DNA of 27,542 nucleotides, from UHGV virus genome UHGV-0297460; one strand, given 5' to 3'. Origin of the DNA: a virus. Under the pieces are notes generated by a model that was not told where the DNA came from, ran no database searches, and saw only the letters and a list, made by a program, of their open reading frames with translations. This document shows, piece by piece, positions 15,113 to 27,374 of the stretch. Within the stretch, counting starts at the first letter, position 1. The number at the start of each line of letters is the position of its first letter. The translations under genes and the position numbers were made by a program.

Positions 15113-15834
15113 TAAGCAGCCTCCCCTGTTACTTTCAGCATTCCGTTATCGAGCAGCTTTCTGGTCAGCCACTGTTGACCACGCCCGGTGATTTTTGTGG
15201 TGAACGATATCTGTATTCCGTGATTTGTGTTGACCGCTGTTTCTTTCACTGTGAAATAGCCGCGATCCATATATTCCTGCATTGGCACATTGCGCCGGGA
15301 ACCTGAAGCAATAAGGATTTTGTGATCACGCATCCACGCAAACAGTTTGTTTTGACCAATACCAACAACCTTTGCAAAGTTTCCAATCAAAATTCCGCTG
15401 GCCTCGCCAACGCGATCGGCAAACTCAACTTTAGGTGCGACAATTGCGAGCTGGTTTTCCAGTTGCATTTTCTGCTCAGCAAGATCGGCAGCAAGGCGCA
15501 ACGCTTCCGGTAGCGTTTTGGGGATATTAACCGCAGCTTCTTCAAGCTCTCGCCAGCGGTCAACAAGGCGAGCGGTGAACTCTGGCGACAACTGGGCAAC
15601 AACGACAATACTGTCTCGCTTACCTTGTTCGCCCTCGAAGACGTAATGCTCGTACTGAACATTGAACCCTAAGTTATTGATTCTTTCGGAAACCTCAATT
15701 TGAGGAAGCCGGATAACACCATTTTTAGCCAGCGTTTCGATGGTACGTTTCACATTGTCATGACGCTTACCAACCAACTCAGCAATTTCAATGCTTGTCA
15801 TTTTGATGGCATTGCCATTCATTAACTCATTCAT
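15112..15834 (-). CDS. Antirepressor-like protein (Rha-like N-terminal region, KilA-C/ANT-type C-terminal domain)
   Basis: 240 aa; N-terminal IEIAELVGKRHDNVKRTIETL motif; C-terminal ...NKLFAWMRDHKILIASGSRRNVPMQEYMDRGYF typical of ANT/KilAC; domain call by memory only. Confidence 0.55.
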   Translation of the reverse strand: MNELMNGNAIKMTSIEIAELVGKRHDNVKRTIETLAKNGVIRLPQIEVSERINNLGFNVQYEHYVFEGEQGKRDSIVVVAQLSPEFTARLVDRWRELEEAAVNIPKTLPEALRLAADLAEQKMQLENQLAIVAPKVEFADRVGEASGILIGNFAKVVGIGQNKLFAWMRDHKILIASGSRRNVPMQEYMDRGYFTVKETAVNTNHGIQISFTTKITGRGQQWLTRKLLDNGMLKVTGEAA

Positions 15835-16003
15835 CGTCTTCTTCCTCGTACATTGAGCTATTCGGATCGCTCATCAGTTCTGCGCAGCAATCGGAGCACA
15901 CGTGAACTTCAAGCACATGCAGCTTCTGACCGCAGTTAGCGCACGTTAATGCCCGCTCGACGCTTTCTTTCTGGTATTGAAGGGATTGGGATGGGCTAAG
16001 CAT
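15827..16003 (-). CDS. Small Cys-rich (zinc-ribbon-like) nin-region protein, 58 aa, NinF-like position
   Basis: Own translation MLSPSQSLQYQKESVERALTCANCGQKLHVLEVHVCSDCCAELMSDPNSSMYEEEDDE; below the 60 aa track cutoff; stop overlaps next start (ATGAATGA). Confidence 0.5.
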   Translation of the reverse strand: MLSPSQSLQYQKESVERALTCANCGQKLHVLEVHVCSDCCAELMSDPNSSMYEEEDDE

Positions 16004-16169
16004 TATTGGCGTCCTGCATCATGAGAAATACAATCATGGCGGCGCGGAGTGGAGATTCACCGCAGAAGTAGTAGCCAGGAATATTTTCCCATTCCCAACA
16101 ACCTTCCTCTAAATCACCTCCTGACCATGCGCACCATTCTTTTTCCGCTGTCATCCACATAGTGCTGAT

Positions 16170-16283
16170 TTTGCTTTCAGTGATAATTGGCCACGCGTAT
16201 TCAGGATTATTGCAAGGATTGAAGCAATTTCCGTTTGAAGAACGGAAGCCATTAATATCCCTTTTTTGCGTCTGCCAAATAGG
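16170..16283. repeat. 114 bp inverted-repeat arm X (perfect reverse complement of 16581-16694)
   Basis: Base-by-base comparison of reverse complement; identity stops at both flanks. Confidence 0.9.
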
Positions 16284-16350
16284 ACGAAGTATCACCGACA
16301 TCATCTGCGAAAACTGCAAATACCTTCCAACGAAACGCACCAGAAATAAA
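16284..16350. repeat. 67 bp inverted-repeat arm Y (perfect reverse complement of 16695-16761)
   Basis: Base-by-base comparison; abuts arm X but in the order X-Y at both loci, not the Y-X expected of a simple inverted duplication. Confidence 0.9.
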
Positions 16351-16580
16351 CGCAAGCCAATCCCAAAAGAATCTGACGTAAAAACCTTCAACTACACGGC
16401 TCACCTGTGGGATATCCGGTTGCTAAGACATCGTGCGAGGAAATGACAATGGATTATTCACAGTTAAGTGATTTTGAAATTAACAGACGAGTATGTGAGG
16501 CTTTAGATATGGAGGAGCATTTCTTCATACCTGATGACGAAGCAGACTTCGATTCTGAGATCCCCACTGACGAAAGAGGT

Positions 16581-16694
16581 CCTATTTGGCAGACGCAAAA
16601 AAGGGATATTAATGGCTTCCGTTCTTCAAACGGAAATTGCTTCAATCCTTGCAATAATCCTGAATACGCGTGGCCAATTATCACTGAAAGCAAA
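16581..16694. repeat. 114 bp inverted-repeat arm X' (partner of 16170-16283)
   Basis: Perfect reverse-complement identity. Confidence 0.9.
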
Positions 16695-16761
16695 TTTATT
16701 TCTGGTGCGTTTCGTTGGAAGGTATTTGCAGTTTTCGCAGATGATGTCGGTGATACTTCGT
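16695..16761. repeat. 67 bp inverted-repeat arm Y' (partner of 16284-16350)
   Basis: Perfect reverse-complement identity. Confidence 0.9.
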
Positions 16762-16771
16762 CGCTGTCGCC

Positions 16772-17182
16772 TCATTCGTACCTCCTGTCGGTAAATCTGA
16801 CACCCTGACCAATAGCCCATGCTGTTGTGTACTCGATCAGACTTGCCATACGCTTCACACTCATCTGCGCGCTGCTTTCGCGAATGTTGACGTATTCGCC
16901 TTCAAGCCCGGGCAAAACATCAGCTTCCTGTTTTGTTGCCACTGCATGACCGCTGATCAACAAAACCTTCCATTGTTCTGGTTTTAACCATTTATCGCGC
17001 CACTGAACTTGCCTAGCGATATCTGCGACCATCGCGTGAAATTTTGCGTTCTGGTCAAGGTTGCGCTTGTAGTCAGTAATGCGGATGGTGACTGGCTTGT
17101 CTTTATCGAGTGGTGTTGCGAGGATGGCATTTATTGCAGCTTGCTGTTGTTGCTTAGTTCGGAGGAATATTGTTTGCTTCAC
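16772..17182 (-). CDS. ninB: NinB (Orf-family recombination mediator)
   Basis: 136 aa with GTG start and AAGGAG SD; ...[32 protein letters not shown]... parallels lambda NinB ...RNRSLDQNRKLWACLGDVSRQVEWHGRWL. Confidence 0.8.
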
Positions 17183-17193
17183 TGAATACTCCT

Positions 17194-17385
17194 TTATTTT
17201 TTATGCCTGTAACCCCATTCTTCCAGCAACCTTGCGGCGTACCACCCAAGAAACAAAGGAAAGAACATTACAATGAGATATTTCCCGCCACGGTCAATGT
17301 TCGAAATTGACCAGATTACGATGTAACCAGTGCAGGACAGGAATATTACAAACCCCAAAAAGCTACTTCGTCGACTCATGCTCAC
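17194..17385 (-). CDS. Small hydrophobic protein (63 aa), predicted membrane
   Basis: Two hydrophobic stretches; start overlaps upstream stop (ATGA). Confidence 0.45.
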   Translation of the reverse strand: MSMSRRSSFLGFVIFLSCTGYIVIWSISNIDRGGKYLIVMFFPLFLGWYAARLLEEWGYRHKK

Positions 17386-17696
17386 TCCTTCACTTTGATT
17401 CCAGCGGCGCGGATAGCCTCTACATCGCTTTCGTATTGCGATTCTGCACCTGAGTCATAGCCAATGTGATAATCACCGGGAAGTGGGCCTTTCTTTGGCT
17501 TTTGCAGCTCAATTTCAATAGCTGCTCTCGATGCCTGCCACGTTTGCCAGTGGCCTTGAACATCGTCCATCACGTATTGACCACCAATATCACCACTGCC
17601 AATTTCATGGTGATTTTCAGGGTAACGGATAAGGTCTGAAGATTCGCCCCCCACGTCGTAACCAACTCTCTTCAAACTGGCATCTGCTTTCGTCAT
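17382..17696 (-). CDS. Hypothetical protein (104 aa; start uncertain, may begin at internal Met near 17570)
   Basis: ORF coupled to downstream gene; 5' 80 nt overlap the upstream Cys-rich ORF in another frame. Confidence 0.4.
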   Translation of the reverse strand: MTKADASLKRVGYDVGGESSDLIRYPENHHEIGSGDIGGQYVMDDVQGHWQTWQASRAAIEIELQKPKKGPLPGDYHIGYDSGAESQYESDVEAIRAAGIKVKE

Positions 17697-17799
17697 CTTT
17701 CATAAGGCAGTCACATTCAATAAAAATCGGCTCTCCCCAAGGAGTAGAACCTCCGCTATCACACATTCCTGTGTTATTGCACTTTTGGCACTTGCTCAC
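17617..17799 (-). CDS. Small Cys-rich protein (60 aa, GTG start)
   Basis: GGAGG SD 5 nt upstream of GTG; CxxC...C...C.C pattern (MSKCQKCNNTGMCDSGG...IECDC). Confidence 0.4.
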   Translation of the reverse strand: MSKCQKCNNTGMCDSGGSTPWGEPIFIECDCLMKDDESRCQFEESWLRRGGRIFRPYPLP

Positions 17800-17811
17800 A
17801 TTAACCTCCGA

Positions 17812-18090: not shown

Positions 18091-19467
18091 TCATACGTCA
18101 GCCCCTTGTGCATATCGTCTGCCACGCGCAGCAGGTGCATTTGATGCTGTGCAAATCTGTCTGGCTTCATCCTGGTCACATGCAACAAAGTGTCCGTTGC
18201 AGAACCGCTGGTAAACCGTACCAAGTGAGCCAAAACGGTTTTTCGTCACGATGATTTCAGCAAATGGCGCGGCGCTACTGTTCTCGTCATATACCGCTTC
18301 CCGATAGAGCATGATGATTGAGTCTGCGTCCTGTTCAATGCTTCCTGAATCACGCAAATCTGCGTTTGTCGGGCGTTTGTTTGGTCGCTTCTCAACATCG
18401 CGTGAAAGCTGACTCAGGGAAATAACCGGTGTTTTCAGGTCTTTCGCCATCGCCTTCAGGCTTCCGGAGATGTGAGCAATTGCGAGGTCGTTGCGGTCTG
18501 CTTTCGGCTTCTCAATCAGGCCAAGATAATCCGCCATGATGAGTGAGAGGTTTGGATTTTCCTGTTTGTGCCGTTCTGCGATTGAGCGTATTTCTTCGAC
18601 CGATAATCGCGAGGCATCGACTACCCATACATCCAAATCTGCAAGCTGACTCATGCCGTTAGCAACACGTGCCCAGCCCTCGTCATCCATCGATGCAGGA
18701 TTTCGCAGTACGCTAACCGACATCCTCCCGGCGTTGGCAATGCTTCGCTCTGCAATCTGCAATGCGCTCATTTCCATTGAGAAAATCAATACCCCGCGCC
18801 GGACGTCAGAACCAGGAATAACGCGGCTTGCAACGCCTTCGGCAATCTTCAGCGCCAGTTCGGTTTTCCCCATACCAGGACGAGCAGCGATTATCACCAG
18901 GTCTTCCGCGTTCATCCCTCCGGTGATGGCATCAAGTTCTTCGATTCCGGTCTTCAGGGTATCGGACTCTTCTCCGTTCCTCAGACGCCTGTCAAGCGTG
19001 TCAGTGTAGTCGGTGATGATTTCCCCTAACCGTACAGGTTTAACCTCGTCACGGGGCTTTCTGATGGCTGAGAGACGTTTTACAAGTTCATCCATCGCCT
19101 GACTCAATGCGTCGATGGTTCCGCTTTGGATTGGTTCACGCATTTCATCCATGATTTCCAGCACCAGACGGCGGTGATAGTTATCCGCGACCATTCCGGC
19201 ATATCCCTTCAGGTTTGCGGCGCTCGGGCAGTTTTTGCTGGTCATCAGGATTGACGTGAAATGCTCCTCTCCGCACGCCTCGGCAACCATCAGCGCGTCG
19301 ATTAGGTTTCTGTTTCTCGCCTGCTTCCGGATAACCTCGAAGGCTTTCCGGTAGAGCGGAATTGAAAACGCTTCCGGCTCCAGCGTTGCAAGAACGTCAC
19401 TGGCGGTTGGAGTTAATCCACCAATCAGCAGGCCACCGATAACGCTCGCTTCGATATCCTGTCTCAT
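18091..19467 (-). CDS. Replicative DNA helicase, DnaB family (P22 gene 12 position)
   Basis: 458 aa; Walker [16 protein letters not shown], Walker B/H4 motifs ...[10 protein letters not shown]..., DnaB-like N-terminal domain. Confidence 0.9.
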
Positions 19468-20411
19468 GCAATCCCCCTGTCTGCAAACTTCCCTTCCCGA
19501 ACTCCCGTTAACGAGTCTTCTCTCAGCAGGTAATCAAAATCAGCCGTCCAGCCCGTGTCGTTGTCTCCGAAGTAAAACGGCTTGGCCTGATGCACAAACG
19601 CCCTGACATACGCTCTGAAACCGTCCACGTTTGGCGTTTTCAGTTGCGGGATGATTTTCTTCAGGCGGCGTTTTCGTTTCTCGTTGACCGCAACAGCGTG
19701 TGGCAGTCTGTCACCGACTTCGGTGTTGTAGGCGTTCAGGAAGGATTCGTAGTCGATTCGTTCTGCCTTGCGACGTTCAGGTTTAACCTGCCCATCGCCT
19801 CCCCCATTGGGGGGTAGGGGGGTATTATTTATATTCTTGTTAATACCTTCTTGTTCATGATGTGCGGTTGTTTGTGCGGCTTCATGTGCGCTTTCATGTG
19901 CGGCATGTACGCTGAAAGCCGCGCTATTGCTGGCTTCATCATGTGCGGCATCATGTGCGGTTGTTTGTGCGGCTTCATGTGCGGGTAAATTGTCCATTTT
20001 TTGAGCATATTCATGGTAATTTGTGATGGTTATCACACGGCCTTTTTGCTTCTCTCCATCAATGGAGATCATCCCCTCTTTCACAAAAACCTGAAGCATC
20101 CGCTCAACCTGATCACGGCTTGCTGGCTTGCCATGTCTGTCGCATAACTGAAGACCTAAATCAGCTGCTGTCACAACCAGTTGACCGGGTTGCAGATGCC
20201 ATTCATGACCTTTGAAATTCGCTTTGTATGGCTTTCTGGCGGCATTCAGGAGAAGGTTTTCCCACAGGGTGCGAAGATAAACATCTTTCGCCCATGACTG
20301 TTTCAGAATGCTCCGGTACAACGGAATGTAACCAGTTTTCTGGTTCTCCATCCTGTTGCTCCTGCGCTCGTGTGCGGCGCTGAAATCGTAGATTTTTGCT
20401 GTATTGCTCAT
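19464..20411 (-). CDS. Replication initiator / replisome organizer (lambda O-like), with iteron-encoded His/Ala-rich linker
   Basis: 315 aa; N-terminal replisome-organizer-like domain; internal repeats encode [14 protein letters not shown]...; immediately upstream of helicase. Confidence 0.8.
19857..19990. repeat. Putative replication origin iterons inside the O-like gene (two clusters of four 12 bp-spaced TGTGCGG repeats; 31 bp direct repeat at 19860-19890 and 19953-19983)
   Basis: TGTGCGG at 19861, 19873, 19885 (variant), 19897 and 19942, 19954, 19966, 19978; AT-rich tracts flank at 19820-19850 and 19985-20040. Confidence 0.65.
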
Positions 20412-27302: not shown

Positions 27303-27374
27303 TAATCCTCGCACTCGCGGGGATTTCTTTTATCTGAACTCGCTACGGCGGGTTTTGTTTTATGGAGATGATAA

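Follow-up and report, generated by a model that had tools for sequence, protein, structure and literature searches.

Genes and repeats at the ninE-ninX locus

The locus described here lies in the nin region of a prophage. The window, by which we mean the entire stretch of 27,542 nucleotides that was analysed, belongs to a CUS-3-type, P22-like prophage of ST95-type E. coli, of which it represents the late and early region. It covers 89% of phage CUS-3 with 99.4% identity, and the same prophage is carried by ST95-type strains such as APEC O1, S88 and ATCC 11775. In the relatives, the wild-type minus strand carries a chain of overlapping genes that consists of ninB, ninE (58 aa), ninX (141 aa) and ninF. 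In the window, ninB and ninF are intact, and mapping of codons onto the segments between them revealed that ninX and ninE are both broken by a rearrangement. The genes, segments, junctions and repeats are as follows:

15827-16003, minus strand: ninF, intact, on the downstream side; the ninX stop overlaps its start, and its product is identical to the annotated NinF of APEC O1
up to 16169: L, outside the rearrangement
15996-16169, minus strand: 3' part of ninX (codons 85-141 plus stop), located in L; the X/L boundary lies at NinX codon 84.0
16170-16283, minus strand: X', ninX codons 47-84 in operon orientation, the outer copy of the 114-bp duplication
16283/16284: J1, the X'/Y' junction (AATAGG/ACGAAG), with a 3-nt microhomology, GAC, at 16283-16285
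16284-16694, plus strand: inverted block Y'-M-X, 411 bp, the reverse complement of wild-type X'-M'-Y
16284-16350, plus strand: Y', inverted copy of ninE codons 5-27; ORF 16162-16446 matches PF05322 positions 5-58
16351-16580, plus strand: M, the single-copy core, inverted in the window
16351-16446, plus strand: ninE part of M, codons 28-58 plus stop
16443-16580, plus strand: ninX part of M, codons 1-46
16581-16694, plus strand: X, inverted copy of ninX codons 47-84
16694/16695: J2, the X/Y junction (AGCAAA/TTTATT), blunt, with 0 nt of microhomology
16695-16761, minus strand: Y, ninE codons 5-27 in original orientation, the outer copy of the 67-bp duplication; ORF 16626-16820 matches PF05322 positions 1-27
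from 16762: R, outside the rearrangement
16762-16775, minus strand: start of ninE, covering codons 1-4 and a portion of codon 5; it lies outside the rearranged part, and ninE begins 14 nt inside R
16772-17182, minus strand: ninB (Orf-family recombination mediator), intact, the upstream flank
16170-16285 and 16579-16694: inverted-repeat pair I1 from the repeat scan, 116 nt, 100% identity
16283-16350 and 16695-16762: inverted-repeat pair I2 from the repeat scan, 68 nt, 100% identity

The repeat scan of the window thus returned two perfect inverted-repeat pairs. I1 and I2 are the sole long inverted repeats within the 27.5 kb and are far beyond chance. The original prediction had described this architecture as a segment X of 114 nt (16581-16694) and an adjacent segment Y of 67 nt (16695-16761), which recur as perfect reverse complements at 16170-16283 and 16284-16350, respectively. 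Direct string tests bore out both identities, and the order X-Y indeed holds at the left locus and the right locus alike. The arms of I1 and I2 as found by the scan are 2 and 1 nt longer than X and Y, because the 3-nt GAC at 16283-16285 fits both pairs.

It had also been proposed that X encodes the centre of a small protein whose ends lie on opposite strands, and this assignment proved right. The plus-strand ORF 16407-16808 comprises the NinX N-terminus plus X, and the minus-strand ORF 15996-16391 comprises X' plus the NinX C-terminus, its own N-terminus being antisense-derived. The length of 139 aa given for the reconstructed protein is correct when counted from MDYSQ, but the intact form begins with MTMDYSQ and has 141 aa. 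As had been suspected, this 141-aa protein belongs to the NinX family, matching PF10765 (formerly DUF2591) over profile positions 1-114 with 54.2 bits at a gathering cut-off of 22.6 bits. The NinX ORFs present in the window are fragments, which match profile positions 44-114 (39.1 bits) and 1-65 (22.3 bits, below the cut-off). The description of the locus as one split gene was accurate for ninX but incomplete, as ninE is broken as well, Y being ninE codons 5-27. Wild-type NinE of 58 aa matches PF05322 over its full length (profile positions 1-58, 142.9 bits); in the window NinE is represented by two PF05322 fragments, one on the minus strand (profile positions 1-27) and one on the plus strand (5-58).

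Comparison with related prophages and public collections

Interleaved perfect inverted repeats in the order X-Y/X-Y are the diagnostic footprint of an inversion plus duplicated ends and not of a switch, and comparison with close relatives settles the choice between the two at once. Apart from the repeat feature, identity to APEC O1 is 99.98% along the entire window. A blastn alignment with this strain fell into three blocks, the middle one of which (16283-16694) corresponds to L002 20782-20371 on the opposite strand with 412 of 412 positions identical. The relatives have the layout L-X'-M'-Y-R, as opposed to L-X'-[Y'-M-X]-Y-R in the window, and the 1,220-bp string composed of L, X', the reverse complement of M, Y and R occurs verbatim in APEC O1, as established by exact string match. 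When the rearrangement was undone, the window agreed with FDAARGOS_1298 at 27,361 of 27,361 positions. One event only separates these two sequences: there are 0 mismatches elsewhere, and the only new junctions are J1 and J2. The net gain of 181 bp corresponds to X' (114 bp) and Y (67 bp), which were retained outside the inverted 411-bp block.

Exact reconstruction from APEC O1 and FDAARGOS_1298 further showed that the derived sequence equals A, followed by the reverse complement of A-B-C, followed by C. [quoted passage not shown] The proposal that an inversion separates the window from its relatives was therefore confirmed, both by alignment and by a reconstruction that is exact. A single intact ninX is found in related prophages, where the aligned region shows ninB-ninE-ninX-ninF unbroken. 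The wild-type layout is present in 69 of the 69 complete genomes that carry at least 80% of the prophage, and the simple intact layout also occurs in the divergent phages Kapi1, HK629 and P22 relatives. We rejected the idea that the layout of the window is the ancestral state, since thousands of genomes, as well as divergent phages, have ninE-ninX intact.

Every isomer that recombination between the repeats could produce carries J1 and J2, so that a single search for these junctions covers all three isomers. With a 1.4-kb query, megablast found no place with at least 80% coverage in 5,426 complete E. coli genomes and 50,697 phage records; the best coverage, 71% and 69%, was obtained at wild-type places. 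Junction-centred 120-mers were spanned (at least 80%) in 0 genomes, each half being present in about 2,133 genomes. An exact scan for J1 and J2 found neither of them in IMG/VR, GTDB representative genomes and JGI metagenome contigs, and the wild-type junction, which served as positive control, was found in 19 IMG/VR contigs. On the protein level, exact look-up of the chimeric ORFs in nine start variants gave no entry in a collection of 15 billion proteins. A homology search with the chimeric protein returned no chimera; its matches were ordinary NinX proteins, unrelated truncations and spurious antisense ORFs. The rearrangement is private to this sequence among the public collections searched. 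The 28-mer GTCTGCCAAATAGGACGAAGTATCACCG could serve to recognize the rearranged allele. Homology searching also showed that other broken forms of NinX occur in public data.

The question of an invertible switch

The interleaved repeats had originally been read as the signature of a DNA inversion or an invertible switch, and a good part of the observations behind this reading stands. Recombination between the X arms does generate an intact NinX ORF, and its product is identical to WP_000177653.1. In this isomer, L-X'-M'-Y-X-Y-R, ninE is broken; recombination between the Y arms leads to L-X'-Y'-X'-M'-Y-R and gives the opposite result, with ninE intact and ninX broken, and in the present orientation neither of the two genes is intact. 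Both are intact solely in the repeat-free wild type. A single flip had to be rejected as a route to the wild type, as neither the X nor the Y flip reproduced the reference in a string test. To reach the wild type, a flip has to be followed by a deletion: the flip turns the other repeat pair into direct repeats, and the deletion takes place between these.

These alternating ORFs would suit a programmed invertible switch or shufflon-like element toggling ninX (and ninE), served by a recombinase in trans or by phage recombination functions. The 114- and 67-bp arms are long enough for homologous recombination, and the prophage encodes NinB next door as well as RusA, Erf and an anti-RecBCD protein. 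All of these recombination genes, however, belong to homologous recombination. The original prediction had noted that no recombinase is encoded nearby, and annotation supports it on this point: relatives that are 99.98% and 100% identical to the window have no site-specific recombinase annotated anywhere along it, and the RefSeq annotation of two relatives lists neither an invertase nor an integrase over the whole window. The arms simply duplicate coding sequence of ninX and ninE and are not recombinase sites, and sequence comparison of J1 and J2 revealed no common crossover core. Site-specific recombination was rejected on the basis of the annotation and the junction sequences. In addition, all isomers share J1 and J2, which are absent from every collection searched, the simple intact layout is found in all 69 prophage-bearing genomes as well as in Kapi1, HK629 and P22 relatives, and no state other than the repeat-free wild type has both genes intact. 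With no isomer in the collections, no invertase, no shared core and a layout that is not conserved, the switch reading did not hold up, and we consider a programmed element of this kind hardly credible.

Comparison with established switches leads to the same distinction. The G segment of Mu with Gin, the C segment of P1 with Cin, Salmonella Hin and the shufflons share with the locus a segment in a phage genome that is bounded by inverted repeats and whose flip changes which ORF is intact. In those systems, however, a serine or tyrosine recombinase is encoded adjacently and acts at short conserved crossover sites, and the window locus has neither. Both orientations of those segments are present in populations and their layout is conserved, whereas neither was found for the window locus. 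Inversion mediated by an IS element or transposon was likewise rejected, as the repeats consist of ninX/ninE sequence that is single-copy in the wild type and the annotation shows no transposase in the vicinity. That the arms are perfectly identical had been taken to indicate recent or ongoing exchange. The first part of this claim stands and the second is not needed: the arms are identical because the event is so recent that, this feature aside, the window matches another genome at 100%.

Origin and consequences of the rearrangement

We give about an even chance to the reading that the locus carries a single, very recent and unprogrammed lesion of the dupINVdup class, produced by two polymerase strand switches in vivo. 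Followed from left to right, the sequence path leads through ninX codons 84-47 (X'), then along the opposite strand back over Y'-M-X (411 bp), and forward again from Y. According to this model, one DNA polymerase would have switched strands twice within one replication fork before resuming the original template, and the strand switching could have taken place during chromosomal or phage replication. A double strand switch is the simplest process for the locus because exactly two new junctions are present and the path returns to the original template, and an origin in one fork fits because the span is 411 bp. Two inverted template switches in one fork have been proposed as the source of small inversions with almost reciprocal junctions in E. 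coli (PMC3161906), and short-range template switching has been formalized in a four-point model (PMC7954356). In four-point notation, the switch-point order on the ancestor is 3-1-4-2 according to our own derivation, and this order is absent from the published list (PMC7954356).

The inversions in E. coli reported by Lin, Gibson, ... Hastings 2011 (PMC3161906) provide the nearest bacterial parallel. They likewise have the size of one fork, two non-homologous, non-reciprocal junctions and sequence gained at the ends, and neither a recombinase nor an IS element is involved. Their offsets amount to a few tens of bp and their junctions lie in potential stems, whereas the offsets are 114 and 67 bp at the window locus, both of them duplications, the breakpoints do not lie in notable hairpins and one junction is blunt. 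When the wild-type sequence was folded as DNA in 50-nt windows, none of the four breakpoints was found in an unusually stable hairpin. With percentiles of 0.25-0.62 of the local distribution, a version of the template-switch model in which hairpins stall the fork is unsupported. Microhomology amounts to 3 nt at J1, whereas J2 has 0 nt, and 10% of random events simulated on this sequence reach at least 3 nt at one or both of their two junctions. The two junctions thus offer no positive indication that microhomology guided the switches.

Human dupINVdup events (Brand et al. 2015; Collins et al. 2017, PMC5338099) and the template-switch model (PMC7954356) share an identical topology with the locus, in which A-B-C becomes A-C'-B'-A'-C. 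In each case there are two junctions, and inverted duplications flank an inverted single-copy core. The human events measure kilobases to megabases, whereas the event in the window measures 411 bp and is one private occurrence in a prophage. Events of this kind are already known, both as dupINVdup and as double template switch; what is new is this instance, which no sequence in the public collections searched carries. If real, it would be a clean bacterial dupINVdup at base-pair resolution and possible starting material for homologous flipping, and as such would be of modest interest for the field of template switching.

A different explanation holds that no bacterial cell ever contained the rearrangement and that it instead originated from strand switching in vitro during amplification (for example MDA or PCR chimeras that took over a library), from an error in long reads or in assembly, or from manipulation after assembly. 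The original prediction had rightly left an artefact as a possibility. The event is unique among all collections searched and a public complete genome matches the remainder of the window with 100% identity, and this combination fits an origin in vitro or in silico equally well. A blunt J2, a J1 with 3 nt and breakpoints outside of hairpins are what arbitrary breakpoints would give. Moreover, MDA mostly yields inverted chimeras, formed when displaced 3' ends prime on nearby strands (PMC1855051), and such chimeras resemble the locus in having strand-switch junctions with nearby sequence inverted within the same molecule (Lasken and Stockwell 2007, PMC1855051). They differ in that they usually have a single junction with deletions and occur in individual reads, whereas the event in the window has two junctions, is of the duplication type and is part of an assembled consensus. 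Fold-back chimeras from MDA or long reads typically show one inverted junction, often with a deletion; here, two coordinated junctions and a precise return to the template are found within a 27-kb contig. In addition, more than 70% of MDA junctions have 2-21 nt of complementarity (PMC1855051), compared to none at J2. The wild type is repeat-free at this place, so that a graph assembler given wild-type reads would find no k-mers across J1 or J2, and reads bearing both junctions would have had to exist. It is therefore unlikely that computation alone produced the layout by misassembling wild-type reads. On balance, an artefact is a serious possibility that we place short of an even chance.

Inversions in Drosophila (Ranz et al. 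2007, PMC1885836) are likewise flanked on both sides by inverted duplications, which consist of non-repetitive and in part coding sequence, and the sizes of these duplications, 46 bp to 1.9 kb, overlap those in the window. They are fixed, megabase-scale and dependent on end joining, whereas the event in the window spans 411 bp and concerns a bacterium without classical end joining. The model proposed for them (PMC1885836), in which staggered breaks are followed by end joining, would agree with the blunt J2 and near-blunt J1, which suit end joining better than annealing. Applied to the locus, it would yield the same product, but only if four nicks were made and 114 nt and 67 nt were unwound on a piece of 411 bp, and no independent evidence speaks for it. 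To our knowledge, E. coli lacks the Ku/LigD end-joining pathway. We therefore regard staggered breaks as quite improbable here.

Under the template-switch reading, the repeats are by-products of the rearrangement, and they could support rare homologous flipping. Homologous recombination requires less than the 114 and 67 bp of these repeats. Flipping on rare occasions, and reversion in the long run, would be expected. It is a good deal more doubtful, and in our judgement unlikely, that a genuine double template switch in vivo has given rise to a metastable locus in which two perfect inverted-repeat pairs are interleaved, and at which host RecA or the phage functions Erf/NinB could flip the DNA among three isomers and the wild type could be regained by deletion. 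If this were true, the locus would offer a natural snapshot of an invertible segment arising from ordinary coding sequence.

The likeliest meaning of the rearrangement is small, namely a private knockout of two dispensable genes without assigned function in a well-studied prophage family, or else an artefact. From the reading frames we infer that ninE would yield 27 native residues followed by a nonsense tail of 22 residues. The predicted ninX products are an N-terminal chimera of 84 residues, encoded on the non-operon strand, and a C-terminal fragment with a substituted N-terminus, encoded on the operon strand. Lambda still forms plaques when its nin region is deleted (PMC10695390), and in the P22-like phage Sf6 the nin genes are non-essential and often lost (PMC5630979). 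The prophage is probably viable despite the lesion, because the nin region is dispensable and other broken forms of NinX exist. A terminator search on the operon strand found no new terminator resulting from the inversion. The PR transcript is predicted to carry a perfect 116-bp duplex, and we speculate that this duplex might be a target of RNase III upstream of Q.

Predicted RNA folding and an antisense frame in the rearranged segment

In the operon-sense transcript across the rearranged segment (16120-16810, minus strand), the two copies of ninX codons 47-84, X' and X, are predicted to pair as a perfect 116-bp helix, and the predicted fold of this transcript stretch has a minimum free energy of -314 kcal/mol (z = -22 relative to shuffled sequences). 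A helix between the two copies of ninE codons 5-27, Y' and Y, would cross the X'/X helix, and the two long helices would therefore be mutually exclusive.

On the plus strand, the tail of the chimeric ORF (16695-16808) lies in a frame antisense to ninE/ninB. In the homology search with the chimeric protein as query, ORFs antisense to these genes were found to have been called repeatedly by gene callers in other phages (P0066, P0071 and P0076), and the tail corresponds to the antisense frame called in these three entries. It is therefore most likely non-coding read-through.

Defects in ninX and upstream of ninB in other genomes

The same search recovered several further damaged NinX proteins from public data (P0002, P0005, P0009 and P0024), comprising a 124-aa form with a swapped C-terminus, an 84-aa form and 82- and 84-aa frameshift forms. 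This repeated pseudogenisation of ninX in other genomes is consistent with dispensability of the gene.

In the close relatives APEC O1 and FDAARGOS_1298, a frameshifted gene is annotated immediately upstream of ninB. Its counterpart in the window (about 17382-17800, minus strand) consists of two overlapping entries in the ORF list:

17382-17696, minus strand, ORF directly upstream of ninB
17617-17799, minus strand, second ORF of this gene, overlapping the former

This frameshift defect is common to all close relatives and is unconnected with the 411-bp rearrangement.

Replication gene repeats and window ends

The repeat scan detected a 35-nt direct repeat in four overlapping copies (family D1, 19856-19983), composed of the 12-bp units CATGATGTGCGG, TTGTTTGTGCGG and CTTCATGTGCG, inside the following gene:

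about 19464-20351, lambda-O-like replication-protein gene, placed by coordinate transfer from 20741-21628 of the relative locus L003

These repeats look like ordinary lambdoid-phage ori iterons.

The right end of the window (27542) corresponds to position 40169 of the 40,207-bp CUS-3 phage record and, in APEC O1, to the end of the last gene ahead of torI/dsdC, which places the prophage boundary about 40 bp beyond the window. At the left end, position 1 falls within the DNA-ejection-protein gene.
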